Shown here: piece by piece, positions 7,734-25,781 of the stretch
Layout: every line of letters begins with the position of its first letter
Numbering within the stretch: the first letter of the stretch is position 1
Source: a virus
Taxonomy: Duplodnaviria; Heunggongvirae; Uroviricota; Caudoviricetes
Direction: 5' to 3' (one strand)
Virus record (IMG/VR): IMGVR_UViG_3300035670_000048
Location: 64,001 to 122,612 of that record
DNA length: 58,612 nucleotides
Translations under genes and position numbers: made by a program
Notes under the pieces: generated by a model
The model's database searches: none
Told to the model about the DNA's origin: nothing
What the model saw: only the letters and a program-made list of their open reading frames with translations

Positions 7734-9178
7734 TTAAATATATTTAGGGTGTTTTTGTATGAGTCTTTAATTACATCTTCATAGTTTACTTCTTTACCTT
7801 CAATGTCTGAAAATGATGATTTTTGTGTTGCTATTATAGGTAATACTGTATATGTTGTATAACGTTTATCTCGACAGATATCTAAATAAAATTGATCAGT
7901 AATTAAGTATTGATTCCAATTATAATTTAATATAGTATCATAAAAGTGTTTATTAACTACATAAGCATGATTACAGAATGCTGCTGTTAATTCTCCAACG
8001 TGTCCGCTTATTTGCTTGATAGTATCCATTGAATTAGCACCTAAATATAATACATCCCATCTAGGTAAATCTTTTAATTCAAGTAATGCTTGTTCTAGTA
8101 TATAAGGAGCATTATCTACGAATTTAACATCATCTTCTAAAATCAATACATTATCCCAATTATTATCTTTAGCTAATTGTACAGCACCTAAATGCGATTT
8201 TGAAGCACCAACTCTAGATGGAGCTAATTTTAGACTATGTTCATCTAAATCAGTACGATTACCCATACACTTTAGTGCTTCATCTAAATCAACTTTAAAA
8301 GCATTAAAGTGTTGAGCATTGATATTGAATTTAGCTAATTCGTCTTCGATTTCTTTTTTGCGATCTGTTCGTTCTTCTAAGTTTAAATAAACGATATTTT
8401 TAAAGTAATCGAATGATGGATTTTTTGTTAATATATCTGTAAATTCATATCTATATTCGTCTAATATAGTATTTGGAGAATACCCTTGAGATTTGCTTAC
8501 ATCAATTCTTTCACCCATCAAATACCTAGTACATAGAGCATAAGTTCCATATTCTATAATATCATCAGTTGAATAATTATCAACTCCAGATTCTGAATTG
8601 ACGCTATTAATAAAACATGGTGCTAATGGGAAGAAATATGTTTTTTGAGTATTAACGTCTTTATCATTAGCTAGAAATATCTTTCCAATACATGGATGAA
8701 TTAATGGAGCTGTTTCAAATGCTTCATTATTATTTTCTATATAATATAATTTATTATCTTGTTTCCATTTATGAGCATCGTATCTATATGTATTGTTTGT
8801 ATTTTTTTGTCTGTTTATTCCTTTAAATAAATCTAAAACACTATTATCGAAATCAATTGATCCAATTTCATATAGATCTAAAGGTAAAGTAAATAAAACA
8901 TTATCCGTTAGAAATAAATTTAATTCATCTTTAATAAAATACTCATGGATGTTAAATGTACTATCAAATTCTATATTTTTAAATTCGATATGTTCGTAGC
9001 TTGATTTTAATTTTCTATATGCATTTGGATTAAAAAAGTGATCATCATCTTTATCATTGTATAAAACTTTGATAGTTAATGGATAATACTTTTTAATGTT
9101 TAAAAATAAACTATCAATTAACGACTGGAATTGTAGAGATCGATTCTTTGATAATACAGTTATATATAGTTTTCTCAT
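7730..9178 (-). CDS. Two-domain protein: degenerate N-terminal GT-like domain plus C-terminal GT25 glycosyltransferase
   Basis: C-terminal half: YLNLEERTDRK, GASKSH, VLILEDDV, HAYVV. N-terminal half resembles a decayed GT-A domain (SKNRSLQ...L). Confidence 0.8.
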   Translation of the reverse strand: MRKLYITVLSKNRSLQFQSLIDSLFLNIKKYYPLTIKVLYNDKDDDHFFNPNAYRKLKSSYEHIEFKNIEFDSTFNIHEYFIKDELNLFLTDNVLFTLPLDLYEIGSIDFDNSVLDLFKGINRQKNTNNTYRYDAHKWKQDNKLYYIENNNEAFETAPLIHPCIGKIFLANDKDVNTQKTYFFPLAPCFINSVNSESGVDNYSTDDIIEYGTYALCTRYLMGERIDVSKSQGYSPNTILDEYRYEFTDILTKNPSFDYFKNIVYLNLEERTDRKKEIEDELAKFNINAQHFNAFKVDLDEALKCMGNRTDLDEHSLKLAPSRVGASKSHLGAVQLAKDNNWDNVLILEDDVKFVDNAPYILEQALLELKDLPRWDVLYLGANSMDTIKQISGHVGELTAAFCNHAYVVNKHFYDTILNYNWNQYLITDQFYLDICRDKRYTTYTVLPIIATQKSSFSDIEGKEVNYEDVIKDSYKNTLNIFK

Positions 9179-21491: not shown

Positions 21492-21513
21492 ACAAACATA
21501 AACATATAAAATT

Positions 21514-21663
21514 ATGCCTTTATTATTTATTTTATTATCAATCAGCACATTATTTGGAACAGTATTACATAAGAGTATAAGTAATACAAAGCAACCAATT
21601 TCTCACCGTCGTCATGCTGGTAAGCCTGGTTTGTTGGATATAAATAGAGATTTATCTATTTAA
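21514..21663 (+). CDS. Small hypothetical protein (49 aa)
   Basis: MPLLFILLSISTLFGTVLHKSISNTKQPISHRRHAGKPGLLDINRDLSI; A-rich upstream region. Confidence 0.45.
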   Translation: MPLLFILLSISTLFGTVLHKSISNTKQPISHRRHAGKPGLLDINRDLSI

Positions 21664-21792
21664 TTATCCTTTTAGTAATTGTTTTTTATCTTCTTTGCAG
21701 CAATCACATTTAGGGCATTCATACGCTAGCATTCCGCTAATTGCCCCTACGGAGAATCCTATTGATAGTGAAATTAAAATTGCTGATACCAT
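21664..21792 (-). CDS. Small membrane protein with Cys cluster (42 aa)
   Basis: MVSAILISLSIGFSVGAISGMLAYECPKCDCCKEDKKQLLKG. Confidence 0.5.
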   Translation of the reverse strand: MVSAILISLSIGFSVGAISGMLAYECPKCDCCKEDKKQLLKG

Positions 21793-21804
21793 AGTAATAA
21801 ATTT

Positions 21805-21879
21805 TGGAGGGAATGGAGAATTACGATATCTCGACCTGACGATTAACAGTCGTCTGCTCTGCCTCTGAGCTACAAACCC
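21805..21879 (-). tRNA. tRNA-Asn(GTT), atypical
   Basis: Anticodon loop CT-GTT-AA; encoded CCA; two U.U pairs in the acceptor stem; T-loop ATCGTAA. Confidence 0.8.
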
Positions 21880-21888
21880 TTATAAATG

Positions 21889-21959
21889 TTATCCGAGCTG
21901 GATTCGAACCAACCCTAAACGCACCAAAAACGTTTGTGCTACCGCTACACCATCGGACA
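21889..21959 (-). tRNA. tRNA-Gln(TTG)
   Basis: Cloverleaf, loop TT-TTG-GT, GTTCGAATC T arm. Confidence 0.88.
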
Positions 21960-21964
21960 ATATG

Positions 21965-22036
21965 AGCAGGTAGTCAGATTCGAACTGACGTCTCCGGTTT
22001 GGAAGACCAGAGCACTAACCACTGTGCTATACCTGC
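21965..22036 (-). tRNA. tRNA-Gly(TCC)
   Basis: Cloverleaf, loop CT-TCC-AA, U73. Confidence 0.93.
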
Positions 22037-22041
22037 TTATG

Positions 22042-22113
22042 AGCTCTCATCCGGAATCGAACCGAATTATCCAGATTACAAATCTGGCGCATCGCCTGCA
22101 ATGCTTTGAGAGC
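22042..22113 (-). tRNA. tRNA-Thr(TGT)
   Basis: CCAGA-TTTGTAA-TCTGG anticodon arm. Confidence 0.92.
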
Positions 22114-22165
22114 ATAGAGAGGGACAGGTTATTTATTCCTTTTCGGGACTCCCTCAGACCCATCG

Positions 22166-22237
22166 TATCAACATCAAGATTCGAACTTGAAATAAAGCCT
22201 TATGAGAGCTCTGTGATCACCATTTCACTATGTTGAC
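22166..22237 (-). tRNA. tRNA with CAT anticodon (Met or Ile2)
   Basis: GAGCT-CTCATAA-GGCTT; identity cannot be resolved by eye. Confidence 0.85.
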
Positions 22238-22246
22238 ATTTATTCG

Positions 22247-22318
22247 TAGCAGGGACCAGAATCGAACTGGCGTAGACCTGGCTTATGAGACCGGTGGGCG
22301 ACCAACAACCTCCCTGCT
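22247..22318 (-). tRNA. tRNA-Met(CAT), second copy, weak D stem
   Basis: AGCAGGG/CCCTGCT acceptor, CCGGT-CTCATAA-GCCAG. Confidence 0.8.
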
Positions 22319-22331
22319 ACCAATAATTAAG

Positions 22332-22403
22332 TACCCCCAACGGGATTCGAACCCGTGACTCATCCGTGAAAGGGATGTGACTTAACCGCTTGTCGATAGG
22401 GGC
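22332..22403 (-). tRNA. tRNA-Glu(TTC)
   Basis: CATCC-CTTTCAC-GGATG. Confidence 0.93.
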
Positions 22404-22444
22404 GTTTATTTCTTACTATAATATAATTAAGAAATATTCATTAC

Positions 22445-22903
22445 CTACATTTTTACTAAATTATCTGCAGCATAAGTCATCATAGGTGAATGTCCTTTAT
22501 GTCTTACTGTATAGCCCATTCCTGTTACAATACCCACAGCACTTGTTAATGCTTGGTTTGATCGGTATTTTGGATCTGGATTTAAGTCAATATCAATAAA
22601 TTTAGCTCTAATATCTAATTCTGTTCTAATTTGTTCTGCTACTTCGACTGAAAACCAAACTTCGTTGATTAATCGAGTAACGTGTTCTTTTTCTCTAGGT
22701 ACTTCGAACTTAGTATAAAGAACGTGGGCACCTTTTTTAGGAGTATATAAACCGATTACAATAGCGTAAAACGTTTCTTTTTTCCTATTCTGTGAATCAC
22801 ACCCAATTAATAATTCTAAATCGGGATGTGTCTGCTTGTACTCGTTAATGTAGCCAATCAACTCAATCGGAGTTTTATTAGCCAGTGTTTTGAATTTTCT
22901 CAT
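22445..22903 (-). CDS. RNase H-like protein, YkuK/DUF458 family
   Basis: LLIGCDSQ, RLINEVWFSVEVA, IDIDLNPD, YAAD acidic residues. Start MRKFKT at 22903; the longer ORF overlaps tRNA-Leu. Confidence 0.8.
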   Translation of the reverse strand: MRKFKTLANKTPIELIGYINEYKQTHPDLELLIGCDSQNRKKETFYAIVIGLYTPKKGAHVLYTKFEVPREKEHVTRLINEVWFSVEVAEQIRTELDIRAKFIDIDLNPDPKYRSNQALTSAVGIVTGMGYTVRHKGHSPMMTYAADNLVKM

Positions 22904-22922
22904 ATCCCATTTATTTAAATTG

Positions 22923-23005
22923 TGCACCAAGCAGGAATCGAACCTGCACTCCCTACGGGAATAGCATTTTAAGTGCTACGGGTCTACCTATTCCCCCATT
23001 GGCGC
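22923..23005 (-). tRNA. tRNA-Leu(TAA)
   Basis: TAGCA-CTTAAAA-TGCTA, long variable arm. Confidence 0.93.
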
Positions 23006-23013
23006 GTTTACAG

Positions 23014-23103
23014 TAGAGAGTGAGGGACTCGAACCCTCGCACCGGTTTTATCCGATCTACCTCGTTAGCAATGAGGCCCCTTCACCAACTTGGGTAACTC
23101 TCT
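23014..23103 (-). tRNA. tRNA-Ser(GCT)
   Basis: Loop TT-GCT-AA, long variable arm. Confidence 0.9.
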
Positions 23104-23160
23104 ATAAGGGCCCGATACCTCAACTCTCACCTGCTCGAGCCGACACAGGATTGGAGGATG

Positions 23161-23248
23161 AAGAGGGTGTGAGATTCGAACTCACGGATCGCTTTCACGA
23201 TCGCTGGTTTTCAAGACCAGTCCAATAATCCATCTCTGGCAACCCTCC
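23161..23248 (-). tRNA. tRNA-Ser(TGA)
   Basis: CTGGT-CTTGAAA-ACCAG, long variable arm. Confidence 0.92.
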
Positions 23249-23257
23249 TTATAATTG

Positions 23258-23330
23258 CGGTACTGACGGGGATCGAACCCGCTCCAAACTCCGTGACAGG
23301 GAGATATCTTAACCATTTGACCTCAGCACC
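23258..23330 (-). tRNA. tRNA-Asp(GTC)
   Basis: CTCC-CTGTCAC-GGAG, G73. Confidence 0.92.
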
Positions 23331-23367
23331 GTATTAAATATAATTTGGAAATCTTATATTTCCGTAT

Positions 23368-23443
23368 TGGTGTGATTGAAGAGAATCGAACTCTTATTTA
23401 AGGCACCACAAACCTTAGTCTTAACCATTAGACCACAATCACC
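23368..23443 (-). tRNA. tRNA-His(GTG)
   Basis: AAGGT-TTGTGGT-GCCTT; encoded G-1 and CCA; A73. Confidence 0.9.
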
Positions 23444-23444
23444 G

Positions 23445-23518
23445 AGGTCAATACAGGATTCGAACCTGTGATCGGGCTTTTGCAGAGCCCAGCCTTAAAC
23501 CAACTTGGCTAATCGACC
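23445..23518 (-). tRNA. tRNA-Cys(GCA)
   Basis: GGGCT-CTGCAAA-AGCCC, U73. Confidence 0.93.
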
Positions 23519-23528
23519 TTATTAAATG

Positions 23529-23600
23529 TACTCTCTTAGAGACTCGAACTCCAATCTCTTCATCCGTAGTGAAGTGTTCTATCCATTGAACTAAAAGAGC
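23529..23600 (-). tRNA. tRNA-Arg(ACG)
   Basis: CTTCA-CTACGGA-TGAAG. Confidence 0.92.
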
Positions 23601-23606
23601 AAATCG

Positions 23607-23677
23607 CACAAATGCAAGGATTCGAACCCTGAACAACGCTTTTGGAGAGCGGTATGATACCATTTCACCACAAATGT
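23607..23677 (-). tRNA. tRNA-Trp(CCA)
   Basis: Loop CT-CCA-AA, G73, two U.U pairs in the acceptor stem. Confidence 0.87.
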
Positions 23678-23682
23678 GTATT

Positions 23683-23757
23683 AGAAGTAACATCCTGAGC
23701 TCCTCAGGTATCGCGCCGCTTATTGGAATAATTCCATCTGCTGTCCATATTACTTCT
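23683..23757 (-). ncRNA. Unclassified 75-nt structured RNA between tRNA-Ile and tRNA-Trp
   Basis: 11-bp terminal stem AGAAGTAATAT/ATGTTACTTCT; internal hairpins TGGAAT/ATTCCA and CCTGAG/CTCAGG. Confidence 0.5.
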
Positions 23758-23758
23758 G

Positions 23759-23832
23759 TAGGAATAACAGAATTCGAATCTGTAACCTTCTGCGTATCAG
23801 GCAGATGCTCTAACCAGTTGAGCTATATTCCT
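23759..23832 (-). tRNA. tRNA-Ile(GAT)
   Basis: TCTGC-CTGATAC-GCAGA. Confidence 0.92.
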
Positions 23833-23835
23833 ATA

Positions 23836-23914
23836 TGGTCGGGTGAGCAGGATTCGAACCTGCGTGCTCTCGCGTCCAAGGCGAGCGAGATAAACCTGAC
23901 TCCTCTACCACCCG
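23836..23914 (-). tRNA. tRNA-Pro(TGG)
   Basis: CTCGC-CTTGGAC-GCGAG, C1-G72, encoded CCA. Confidence 0.94.
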
Positions 23915-23962
23915 TTGATCGGCTCCGATTTTTATATAGAACGTTGCCGAAGTAAACTATTG

Positions 23963-24036
23963 TGACCCCGATGCGACTCGAACGCATAACCCCTACATTA
24001 AAAGTGTAGTGCTCTGACCAATTGAGCTACGGAGTC
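23963..24036 (-). tRNA. tRNA-Lys(TTT)
   Basis: CTACA-CTTTTAA-TGTAG. Confidence 0.94.
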
Positions 24037-24040
24037 GTTT

Positions 24041-24117
24041 AGGAGATGTTTTGCCCGTTATTACTACCGGGGTAGCTTCTGGCTCCCCAGGTCGGATTCG
24101 AACCGACATTTTCTCCT
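24041..24117 (-). ncRNA. Circularly permuted tRNA-like RNA (YrlA/Y-RNA-like architecture)
   Basis: 5'-AGGAGA AAAT GTCGG-TTCGAAT-CCGAC CTGGGGA G CCA GAAGCT ACCCCGG TA GTAATAACGGGCAAAAC A TCTCCT-3': T arm, loop-closed acceptor stem, D arm, with the ends forming the anticodon stem. Confidence 0.75.
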
Positions 24118-24121
24118 ATAG

Positions 24122-24194
24122 TGGGAAAGATTGGTTTCGAACCAATTCCTCTGGATTTTCAGTCCAGCGCTTCTACCAAGTTAGCTTCATCCCC
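24122..24194 (-). tRNA. tRNA-Phe(GAA)
   Basis: CTGGA-CTGAAAA-TCCAG. Confidence 0.92.
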
Positions 24195-24203
24195 AATTAA
24201 ATG

Positions 24204-24283
24204 TGCCTGCAGATGGACTCGAACCACCGAACCCGAAGGAGAGCGTTTACAGCGCCCCGCAATTGCCGCTATGCGATACAGGC
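24204..24283 (-). tRNA. tRNA-Tyr(GTA)
   Basis: Loop CT-GTA-AA, extended variable arm. Confidence 0.92.
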
Positions 24284-24292
24284 ATGTTACTG

Positions 24293-24365
24293 TACTCTAT
24301 ACAGGACTCGAACCTGTAATAACTGGAGTCTAAGGCCAGTGTGTCTTCCGTTCCACCAATAGAGC
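24293..24365 (-). tRNA. tRNA-Leu(TAG) lacking the long variable arm
   Basis: Leu-type D arm GGTGGAACGGAAGACAC, loop CT-TAG-AC, variable region only TTATT. Confidence 0.8.
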
Positions 24366-24371
24366 ATTATG

Positions 24372-24443
24372 TATGTCTTAAGGGAATCGAACCCCTACTG
24401 TCTCATTAGAAGTGAGGAGTTCTATCCGTTAAACTAAAGACAC
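24372..24443 (-). tRNA. tRNA-Arg(TCT)
   Basis: CCTCA-CTTCTAA-TGAGA. Confidence 0.9.
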
Positions 24444-24449
24444 ATATCG

Positions 24450-24521
24450 TACATTCTGAGGGATTCGAACCCCCAACCTCTGCCATGTAAAGACAGCACT
24501 CTGCCATTGAGTTAAGAATGC
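24450..24521 (-). tRNA. tRNA-Val(TAC)
   Basis: CTGTC-TTTACAT-GGCAG. Confidence 0.92.
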
Positions 24522-24535
24522 ATTTTGCCAATAAA

Positions 24536-24544
24536 TCAAAGAAC
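24536..24544 (-). promoter_or_regulatory. boxA-like antitermination element
   Basis: GTTCTTTGA in the Ala-Val spacer, resembling rrn boxA. Confidence 0.5.
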
Positions 24545-24552
24545 AACTACTG

Positions 24553-24624
24553 TGGACAAGATGGGATTCGAACCCACATCCTCTTCATTGCAAATGAAGC
24601 GCTCAGCCGTTGAGCTACGAGCCC
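24553..24624 (-). tRNA. tRNA-Ala(TGC), first tRNA of the array
   Basis: CTTCA-TTTGCAA-TGAAG, G3.U70, A73. Confidence 0.93.
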
Positions 24625-24635
24625 ATATATAAATT

Positions 24636-24666
24636 AAAAAAGCCCCTAATCTTGCGGTTAGGGGCT
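24636..24666 (-). terminator. Intrinsic terminator (attenuator) immediately upstream of the tRNA array
   Basis: AGCCCCTAA-CCGCAAGA-TTAGGGGCT-TTTTT, ending 11 nt before tRNA-Ala. Confidence 0.85.
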
Positions 24667-24689
24667 GAATTTTATGTATTAGATACTTA

Positions 24690-24821
24690 TTATCTCATAT
24701 TCATATTCTTACCCCTGTCATTCTTATAATCACTCGCCGGTGTGCCAATAAACAGACATGCTCCCTGCCACGATCTCGTGTTGCGATTTAATTCGACAGT
24801 ATGTAAAAATGTATTTTGCAT
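24690..24821 (-). CDS. Putative attenuator leader peptide (43 aa) containing all 20 amino acids
   Basis: MQNTFLHTVELNRNTRSWQGACLFIGTPASDYKNDRGKNMNMR, then TAA TAA. Codons 36-39 (AGGGGTAAGAAT, 24716-24705) are complementary to ATTCAGCCCCT at the 5' arm of the terminator. Confidence 0.75.
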   Translation of the reverse strand: MQNTFLHTVELNRNTRSWQGACLFIGTPASDYKNDRGKNMNMR

Positions 24822-24837
24822 TGTTGCTTTTATGTTA

Positions 24838-24845
24838 ATAAATAT
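24838..24845 (-). promoter_or_regulatory. ATATTTAT motif (putative late promoter) upstream of the tRNA leader
   Basis: Same motif precedes sheath, tube, tape measure and homing endonuclease genes. Confidence 0.5.
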
Positions 24846-24874
24846 ATACAAATCAGGTTTCCCTTAACTTTCCT

Positions 24875-24891
24875 TAAATATAATTGAGAAA
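24875..24891 (-). promoter_or_regulatory. TTTCYYnATTATATTTA motif (putative early/host-sigma promoter) upstream of the tRNA leader
   Basis: TTTCTCAATTATATTTA; near-identical copies at 28158, 31553, 38562 and 43022. Confidence 0.5.
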
Positions 24892-24902
24892 TCTTTAATT
24901 TC

Positions 24903-25103
24903 CTAATCTTTTTGCAATTCTTGTTTTAATTTTTCGAGATATAAAATACCATCCATTAACTCTTCTTGTGCATGATTCACCCATGATAATTTATCCAAGT
25001 CAGTACGATCTAAATCAGTACCATACTTTTCTTTACCCATACGAGCTCTACGCTCAAATTTAGCAATAATACTTGCTACTACTGTGTCTACTTTAAATTC
25101 CAT
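24903..25103 (-). CDS. Hypothetical protein (helical; possible nucleotide pyrophosphohydrolase-like)
   Basis: RARMGKEKYGTDL...HAQEELMDGILYLEK. Confidence 0.7.
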   Translation of the reverse strand: MEFKVDTVVASIIAKFERRARMGKEKYGTDLDRTDLDKLSWVNHAQEELMDGILYLEKLKQELQKD

Positions 25104-25142
25104 ATTATAACTTTTATTTAATTGAATATACGAAGGAAATAT

Positions 25143-25781
25143 TTAAGGAACAAATTTAATGCCAGTCATTAATGAAATTTGTTCAACTTTTACTTCGTTG
25201 TTTGCAATACCGTCTTTATTTACTGTACTAGTGTTATTATCGAATAAATACGCTAGCCATTTTTTAGTTGATTTTACATATATTACTTTCCAGCATTTTT
25301 CAGGTACTGATACGGTACCGATTTTCTTTAATTCACCAATGTTTCCGGTCCATATTTTTAAATCACCATGTTCCTCAGCTAATTTACGTTCCATTGTTTC
25401 TACTGCTTTCCAATCACCTGCATTTAAAGTATGGTATTGGGCTGACATATTAGACATGTAGAAGCATTCGTCTTGTATTGATTGGGATTGGCATAAGTTA
25501 TCTGCTGCAGGCATCATATGGCCTCTATCAGTGCCTGATCCAACGTAATCTTTTAATGTATTTGTTTTATCTGGTAATAATGGATCTGGTTTGAATGTAT
25601 TTTTACGTTTTAAAGGCACGGGACATGTTACCATTGCTTTAGTTAGGTAATATTCTACAATTACTGGGTAACGCTTTGAGATTGAAAAGTGTGATGTGTA
25701 ATTGGTGTGTTTTAGAATTGAAATGTCTTGTGCTAAAGTACCAAACGATACTAGCAATAATAATAGTAATAATTTTTTCAT
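25143..25781 (-). CDS. DNA/RNA non-specific endonuclease with signal peptide
   Basis: DRGHMMPAAD, FYMSNMSAQ, LNAGDWK (His-Me finger, Serratia-nuclease family); MKKLLLLLLLVSFGTLA leader. Confidence 0.92.
   Translation of the reverse strand: MKKLLLLLLLVSFGTLAQDISILKHTNYTSHFSISKRYPVIVEYYLTKAMVTCPVPLKRKNTFKPDPLLPDKTNTLKDYVGSGTDRGHMMPAADNLCQSQSIQDECFYMSNMSAQYHTLNAGDWKAVETMERKLAEEHGDLKIWTGNIGELKKIGTVSVPEKCWKVIYVKSTKKWLAYLFDNNTSTVNKDGIANNEVKVEQISLMTGIKFVP

Follow-up and report, generated by a model that had tools for sequence, protein, structure and literature searches.

A short reading frame and a terminator precede the phage tRNA array

The DNA analysed here (the window, 58,612 nt) makes up the right-hand 58.6 kb of an IMG/VR viral contig of 122.6 kb, and nearly all of its genes lie on the minus strand. 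An array of 23 tRNA genes opens with tRNA-Ala, which starts at 24624, and is separated by a 278-nt spacer from an upstream gene for a 66-aa protein. The spacer contains an ATG-initiated ORF of 43 codons, hereafter the leader, followed by an intrinsic terminator. The leader stop codon lies 24 nt from the terminator hairpin, and the terminator ends 10–11 nt before tRNA-Ala, a gap (10 nt) that leaves no room for a promoter. Both elements had been reported in a first-pass annotation of this DNA: its ORF (24821 to 24690, 43 codons) and the peptide it quoted are correct as read from the minus strand, and the terminator that it placed just before tRNA-Ala is present as a hairpin at 24666–24641 followed by six T residues. 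The main features of the locus are as follows.

24903, minus strand: stop codon of the upstream 66-aa gene, which precedes the spacer
278-nt spacer between the 66-aa gene and the tRNA array, minus strand: contains the 43-codon ATG ORF
24838–24847, minus strand: promoter-type motif ATATATTTAT, 16 nt upstream of the leader ATG
24690–24821, minus strand: leader ORF, ATG at 24821, TAA at 24692–24690, 43 codons plus TAA, 32 distinct codons
24723–24818, minus strand: sensor codons 2–33 of the leader, reading 22 of the 23 array anticodon classes and enriched in rare codons
24783–24810, minus strand: region 1, 5′ strand of a long helix, codons 5–13 (prediction only)
24705–24717, minus strand: region 2, candidate antiterminator strand CAGGGGTAAGAAT, codons 35–39, forming a duplex with region 3
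24660–24670, minus strand: region 3, ATTCAGCCCCT, terminator 5′ arm and flank, the common partner of regions 2 and 4
24635–24666, minus strand: intrinsic terminator, hairpin 24666–24641 (9–11 bp, 5–6 G–C pairs) and TTTTTT at 24640–24635
21805–24624, minus strand: tRNA array, the regulated set, 23 tRNA genes (ARAGORN) for all 20 amino acids
24536–24544, minus strand: boxA-like motif GTTCTTTGA, directly after the first tRNA behind the terminator

Leader codons sample the tRNAs of the array

The leader peptide contains all 20 amino acids, a set that is complete by residue 33, and our recount agrees with the earlier one on this point and on the 32 distinct codons. The frequency of such a composition in random windows, which the annotation had left to be computed, is low: all 20 amino acids occur in 30 of 51,724 stop-free windows of 33 codons in the 122.6-kb genome (5.8e-4) and, among windows taken from coding ORFs, in 7e-4. 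Because the limit of 33 codons was chosen after the fact, the whole-ORF statistic is the fairer test, and it gives P = 0.006 for all 20 amino acids within 43 residues. Shuffling the 278-nt spacer yields an ATG ORF of at least 43 codons in 4% of cases.

At the codon level and with strict wobble, the leader reads 22 anticodon classes out of the 23 in the array, among them two isoacceptors each for Leu, Ser and Arg, whose mirroring in the leader had already been pointed out; this coverage is reached by 10 of 100,000 random 43-codon coding windows (P = 1e-4). Val-UAC is the only class missed, because the single Val codon of the leader is GTC. Rare synonymous codons are over-used relative to expectation (P = 0.001), among them GTC, CTG, AGG, ACG, GCG, CCG, TCG and CGC, each of which makes up 3–10% of its own family. 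The GC3 value of the leader is 36%, compared with 19% for the genome, which bears out the earlier remark that its GC-rich codons stand out.

The leader peptide matched no family in PHROG or Pfam, and an Rfam search of the leader returned no family, only terminator-driven noise (Yfr10, E = 0.89; toxic sRNA, E = 1.1). Compared by blastn with 50,697 GenBank phage records, the region gave matches at the tRNA level only, and the spacer (277 nt as searched) had no match among the first 80 loci. The element is too short and too diverged for blastn to have retrieved leader homologues, which were found by direct reading.

Leaders of relatives track their own arrays

Close relatives were found in viral and metagenome contigs with the upstream 66-aa protein as anchor; an exact scan of viral contigs for the terminator returned six relatives, all already known. 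Most of the close relatives have a homologous, shorter cassette that consists of ATATATTTAT, an ATG, 20–21 codons, the strand AGGATAGGGG and the terminator GCCCCTAATCACAAGTTAGGGGC, which ends right before the first tRNA. Their arrays hold 5–9 tRNAs, and their leaders are composed of the amino acids of their own array. In L004, L006, L008 and L103, which share the peptide MKNTSTYCTSTWQETARIGE and an array of Tyr, Trp, Cys, Ser, Thr, Glu and Gln tRNAs, 12 codons in a row use all and only the seven array amino acids, a run seen in none of 100,000 random windows (P < 1e-5). His and Pro are present in peptide and array alike in L003. The L111 peptide has Ile, Asn and an AGC Ser codon and its array has Ile, Asn and Ser(GCT) tRNAs; all 14 of its 14 sensor codons match its own array, 8 of its 9 tRNAs are sampled and its contig ends 339 nt past the last tRNA. 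Across arrays that lie wholly on the contig, the leader samples 5 of 5, 8 of 9, 7 of 7 and 4 of 5 tRNAs. One leader matches poorly (6 of 15, L007), and the array behind it looks reduced. As the short leaders form one related family, these matches are not independent events.

Larger relatives, of 200–270 kb, were reached through a conserved tRNA-Glu word. Those with two array blocks have two leaders, each of which fits its own block and not the other, and these phages act as an internal control for leader–array matching. In L099, leader 1 (MKRFTHITFTTFATKWCAMGE...) matches block 1 (Ala, Ile, Phe, Lys, Trp, Arg, Cys, His, Thr and Glu) at 23 of 32 residues and for 10 of 10 amino acids, compared with 10 of 32 residues for block 2 (Leu, Arg, Pro, Asn, Tyr, Met, Val, Gly, Gln and Ser). 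Leader 2 matches block 2 at 24 of 33 residues and for 9 of 9 amino acids, compared with 8 of 33 residues for block 1.

Other leaders retain the full complement. The 44-codon leader of L091 contains all 20 amino acids by residue 33 and is identical to the window leader at 10 of 49 aligned positions (~20% peptide identity); 23 detected tRNA genes for 19 amino acids follow it, and an extra Ile(GAT)-like tRNA with an insert, read by eye and not called by ARAGORN, lies before tRNA-Trp. Two close relatives of the window keep all 20 amino acids, L102 with three amino-acid changes in the leader and L104 with A21 changed to I and I25 to M, a pair of changes that retains the single Ile. In L096, Ala is absent from both array and leader, and the leader covers 17 of the 18 array amino acids. 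Composition is conserved and sequence is not, a pattern that the first-pass annotation had proposed looking for and that is expected of a codon sensor, not of a protein.

Close relatives L005 and L009/L109 have neither leader nor terminator, and their arrays begin ~8 nt after the 66-aa gene at these junctions.

L005:4195-4206, leaderless junction
L009:4195-4205, leaderless junction
L109:580-590, leaderless junction

The element is therefore dispensable, and the cassette has been lost or gained inside the lineage. The earlier expectation that homologous arrays carry the ORF holds for L091, L096, L099, L102, L104, L111 and others, and fails for the leaderless loci.

A tRNA-Ala(TGC)-like gene also lies directly behind the terminator at L092:7190-7262, and at the equivalent place in L099 and L100. 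It is not called by ARAGORN, and its anticodon loop, TTTGCAA, was read by eye.

The leader tail can pair with the terminator

Region 2 (CAGGGGTAAGAAT) and region 3 (ATTCAGCCCCT) can form a duplex of −12.6 kcal/mol (2:3), as the first-pass annotation had suggested for the ORF tail (codons 35–39 here) and the terminator 5′ arm with its flank. This complementarity has P = 0.0095 relative to random 60-nt segments of the window on both strands. In every related cassette, the ORF tail holds a near-copy of the terminator 3′ arm that is able to pair with the 5′ arm, with the following strands and duplex energies.

Window: ORF-tail strand CAGGGGTAAGAAT, −12.6 kcal/mol
L091: ORF-tail strand CGTTAGGGGTA, −16.5 kcal/mol
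L092: ORF-tail strand GTCTCGAGGTTTC, −16.4 kcal/mol
L096: ORF-tail strand AGGGCTCA, −13.2 kcal/mol
L098: ORF-tail strand AGTTCGGA, −10.0 kcal/mol

The terminators of the window, L092, L096 and L098 are unrelated in sequence, and the ORF-tail strand therefore co-varies with the terminator; over these four terminator types the complementarity has a Fisher combined P of 1.1e-4, in line with the covarying antiterminator and terminator foreseen in the annotation. Within a family, the core pairs of antiterminator and terminator are invariant. A cross-family alignment from antiterminator to terminator (A1) left the GGGG strands out of register and was not used for pair counts.

The distance from the stop codon to the terminator stem is 24–33 nt in all cassettes, and the hairpin would therefore stay free of a terminating ribosome. 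From the end of the stem to the first tRNA, the distance is 9–22 nt in every cassette of the window's type and 65–117 nt in the others. In the 269-kb genome L099, the second-cassette terminator stands 91 nt ahead of tRNA-Leu (8780–8904); a promoter-like motif TATATTTG and a boxA-like motif lie between the two, making a bypass promoter possible there.

Folding of the 281-nt region gave a structure better than those of 200 of 200 shuffles (z = −3.2). When the nascent RNA is folded without the 3′ arm, which has yet to be transcribed, the 5′ arm is paired with the ORF strand, and this pairing is gone with a modelled ribosome on the last third of the ORF; the antiterminator also forms in the nascent model without a ribosome. 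On the complete transcript, the terminator is the minimum-energy fold at any masked-ribosome position (hairpin −15.3 kcal/mol, compared with −12.6 kcal/mol for the antiterminator), and the switch would therefore have to be kinetic. Blocking the ORF tail, a check that the annotation had proposed, thus changes the predicted pairing on the nascent RNA and leaves the minimum-energy fold of the full transcript unchanged. In the full leader without a ribosome, the minimum-energy fold contains a long helix of codons 5–13 with codons 30–39 (−20.0 kcal/mol; 1:2), which is predicted to sequester the antiterminator strand in the manner of the trp 1:2 helix.

The reach of a ribosome at the stop codon differs between leaders. 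In the window it covers only GAAU of the antiterminator strand, whose GGGG lies 18–21 nt ahead of the stop. Masking is incomplete in the window, L091, L092 and L096, where 11–18 nt separate the end of the strand from the stop codon. In the short leaders, a ribosome on the stop codon does mask it fully. The first-pass annotation had proposed a trp-type attenuator that samples the array tRNAs and is switched off by a ribosome completing the peptide. The tracking of arrays by leaders, the retention of all 20 amino acids in diverged leaders and the co-variation of tail strand and terminator support the core of that proposal; masking by the completed peptide is incomplete in the window, where a stop-codon ribosome reaches only GAAU, and to work, this step would therefore have to rely on kinetics or on the 1:2 helix.

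Promoter-type and boxA-like motifs flank the cassette

On its coding strand, the 122.6-kb genome has 11 sites of the 10-mer ATATATTTAT; the opposite strand has none. All 11 sites are intergenic, −2 to 42 nt ahead of the ATG of an ORF, and the motif is kept upstream of the short leaders of relatives. The sites in the window, given by first base, are as follows.

24847, 39343, 43483, 54629, 55754, 57541 and 58605, minus strand: ATATATTTAT

Its distribution suggests that ATATATTTAT is probably the phage's own promoter element, and its position ahead of the leader ATG is like that ahead of real genes. For several genes behind the motif, the 5′ UTR would be very short or absent.

The leader has no Shine–Dalgarno site. 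The Shine–Dalgarno core is present ahead of 5% of 125 long ORFs of this phage, compared with 7% of random windows, and a leader without one is therefore normal for the phage; the sequence upstream of its long ORFs is A-rich and G-poor. Such initiation fits a Bacteroidota-like host. The Bacteroidetes −7 box TAnnTTTG was dropped as a candidate promoter element in favour of ATATATTTAT, with 72 sites in the window compared with 88 expected and none in the array region. A TTG start at 24851, which would give a 53-aa version of the leader, was rejected, as the short leaders do not conserve it and the promoter motif lies downstream of it.

Although the leaders of L102 and L104 carry non-synonymous changes, they keep the start, the frame and the stop of the window leader. 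In one freshwater study, RNA-library contigs (two runs) cover 24681–24968, including the leader ORF, of an L104-like variant, and other such contigs cover some of the tRNAs; these contigs carry neither strand, RNA ends nor abundance and may reflect DNA carry-over, and we weighed them neither way.

Directly after the first tRNA behind the terminator lies the 9-mer GTTCTTTGA, which we take to resemble the boxA of rrn operons. It is found on the array strand in L091, L092, L095, L096, L099, L100, L102 and L104, and most of these eight relatives have a copy directly after, or before, the first tRNA behind the leader–terminator cassette. Across 14 loci, the extended form GTTCTTTGA(C/A/T)AT is present in 20 copies on the array strand and 1 on the other strand of eight carriers, and in none of the six short-leader or leaderless loci. 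The motif could be the loading site of an antitermination complex for this long array, which is untranslated.

A candidate attenuator that responds to tRNA supply

The anatomy of the locus, a match of codons to array that follows the changes of the array among relatives and an alternative pairing that co-varies with the terminator lead us to regard the element as probably a trp-type, ribosome-mediated (leader-peptide) transcription attenuator placed before a phage tRNA operon. Transcription would start at the ATATATTTAT-type promoter, 16 nt ahead of the leader ATG, and a ribosome would read the 43-codon leader, whose codons demand essentially each downstream tRNA species, often through rare codons. 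With quick decoding, the ribosome would run through the ORF tail and disrupt or prevent the pairing of region 2 (CAGGGGTAAGAAT) with the 5′ arm; the terminator hairpin would then form and RNA polymerase would halt 10 nt before tRNA-Ala. With a scarce tRNA, the ribosome would stall at any of the sensor codons and leave region 2 free to pair with the emerging 5′ arm, the terminator would come too late and the entire array would be transcribed. The newly made tRNAs would end the stall and close a negative feedback loop, and the leader would act as an OR-gate across all 20 amino acids.

This scheme presumes that the ORF is translated, that the switch works in the stated direction and that it is kinetic. 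We suppose that a passing ribosome keeps the antiterminator from forming early and that the 1:2 and 3:4 helices form afterwards. The leaders of relatives with smaller arrays spell their own sets, and the tRNAs are therefore probably made only when ribosomes are short of them. A role of host anticodon nucleases as the trigger of the switch is plausible speculation. More tentatively, and with the odds against it, the all-20 leader may be a pan-tRNA alarm: any stall, for example after attack by an anticodon nuclease or host shut-off, would call up a full replacement set, with the boxA-like site lending processivity through the 2.8-kb array, as one case of a general, modular system of tRNA homeostasis and counter-defence in large phages.

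We weighed the attenuator against other readings of the same data. A codon-matched mini-ORF could be functional with a different read-out, such as Rho access, processing or stability of the tRNA precursor, or a switch of the opposite sign in which fast translation leads to readthrough. We consider this unlikely, although several observations speak for it: the antiterminator has a less stable pairing than the terminator and is never the equilibrium structure, a stop-codon ribosome leaves the antiterminator strand of long leaders incompletely covered, and the boxA-like motif after the first tRNA points to more layers of elongation control. Four terminator types of unrelated sequence each have a 5′ arm complementary to the ORF tail (P = 1.1e-4), which is difficult to account for unless an alternative pairing is formed, and a model in which the ribosome pushes through the hairpin is made unlikely by the 24–33-nt spacer from stop to stem, which holds a terminating ribosome off it.

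The terminated leader transcript of ~200 nt might instead be a small regulatory RNA, or the peptide might be functional, with the array served by leaky readthrough. The strong structure of the region (z = −3.2) would suit such an RNA, attenuator RNAs and peptides with second roles are known (rnTrpL/peTrpL), and RNA-library contigs span the leader ORF, a coverage that proves neither transcription nor RNA ends. That reading leaves unexplained why the composition of the peptide tracks the array and why each leader matches its own block only; the peptide is poorly conserved between the window and L091 (10 of 49 positions) and has no Rfam, Pfam or PHROG match, and we hold the idea to be improbable. 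Least credible of all is coincidence, that is, a chance spacer ORF beside the ordinary terminator of the upstream operon. In its favour, 4% of shuffled spacers contain an ORF of at least 43 codons, and all 20 amino acids in 43 residues (P = 0.006) is by itself not extreme. Against chance stand the anticodon coverage (P = 1e-4), the run tests in relatives (P < 1e-5) with the cross-block control, the retention of all 20 amino acids in L091, L102 and L104 and a properly positioned promoter motif.

Relation to known attenuators

Classical leader-peptide attenuators, such as trpL, hisL, leuL, pheL and thrL of Escherichia coli and Salmonella, control amino-acid operons. Like them, the phage element combines a short leader ORF with regulatory codons (translated in the trpL type, presumably so here) and an intrinsic terminator before the regulated genes, and its terminator 5′ arm can pair with an upstream strand whose availability is set, or here predicted to be set, by the position of the ribosome. 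A 1:2, 2:3 and 3:4 layout is possible in the phage leader too, and rare codons are shared with leuL. Unlike the trpL type, the phage leader precedes tRNA genes instead of biosynthetic enzymes, and the signal would therefore be tRNA supply, not amino-acid supply. Its sensor consists of single codons for up to 20 amino acids in place of a run of one codon, its antiterminator strand is part of the ORF and precedes the stop codon, and it has a very short 5′ UTR and no Shine–Dalgarno site.

Multivalent attenuators include the ilvGMEDA leader, with Ile, Val and Leu codons, and the thr leader, with Thr and Ile codons. They resemble the phage leader in that more than one amino acid is sensed and any stall leads to readthrough, as we propose for the phage; they respond to 2–3 amino acids, whereas the phage leader covers 20 amino acids and 22–23 anticodon classes and is tailored to each array. 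T-box riboswitches, which control aminoacyl-tRNA synthetase and amino-acid genes, are direct sensors of uncharged tRNA. In both cases, a tRNA-related signal would act on the choice between terminator and antiterminator ahead of translation-related genes. Over 21500–25200, however, we found no T-box hit even at E ≤ 10, and the phage leader matches no other Rfam family and has neither specifier loop nor T-box sequence; sensing would proceed through ribosome and ORF and not through RNA–tRNA binding. By these sequence criteria, the phage leader is outside the T-box family.

Cysteine-responsive attenuators built on leaderless short ORFs are described for mycobacteria (bioRxiv 10.1101/834739). They share with the phage leader a leaderless, or near-leaderless, short ORF whose codon content senses supply and controls what lies downstream, and they differ in reading one amino acid (polycysteine), in preceding protein-coding operons and in belonging to another host group (bioRxiv 10.1101/834739).

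In the literature searched, which left most subscription journals outside, we found no description of leader-peptide control of tRNA genes. Why phages carry tRNA genes and when these are expressed is debated; current ideas are that they compensate for codon usage, replace host tRNAs that have been degraded or evade anticodon nucleases, PARIS and retron effectors (eLife 2023, PMC10264068; Nature 2024, PMC11464382; Nat Commun 2024, PMC11555353). If the attenuator reading is true, phages would measure and answer tRNA supply with a cis-acting sensor of decoding speed at exactly those codons that the array tRNAs read. Leader-peptide attenuation, so far a feature of amino-acid operons with 1–3 sensed amino acids, would then also apply to tRNA genes and to all 20 amino acids, the sequence of a leader would predict which tRNAs a phage monitors, and in synthetic biology the element could be a compact reporter of tRNA availability.

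Other genes of the locus

Additional features within and upstream of the array are listed here.

22247–22318, minus strand: sub-threshold 24th tRNA between tRNA-Met and tRNA-Glu, Rfam 25.3 bits (gathering score 29)
22445–22930, minus strand: gene for an RNase H-like protein, Pfam PF04308 (8.9e-19), PHROG 11311
25143–25781, minus strand: gene for a DNA/RNA non-specific endonuclease, Pfam PF01223 (1.3e-38)

ARAGORN gave no call for the tRNA at 22247–22318. In L104, two adjacent Met(CAT) genes (4015 and 4096; ARAGORN) directly follow tRNA-Glu, and the sub-threshold tRNA of the window may be the counterpart of one of them. The RNase H-like gene is the sole protein gene within the array and would be co-transcribed with the tRNAs behind the attenuator. 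The endonuclease gene lies two genes upstream of the leader, and the N-terminus of its product, MKKLLLLLLLVSFGTLAQ, is hydrophobic and resembles a signal peptide.
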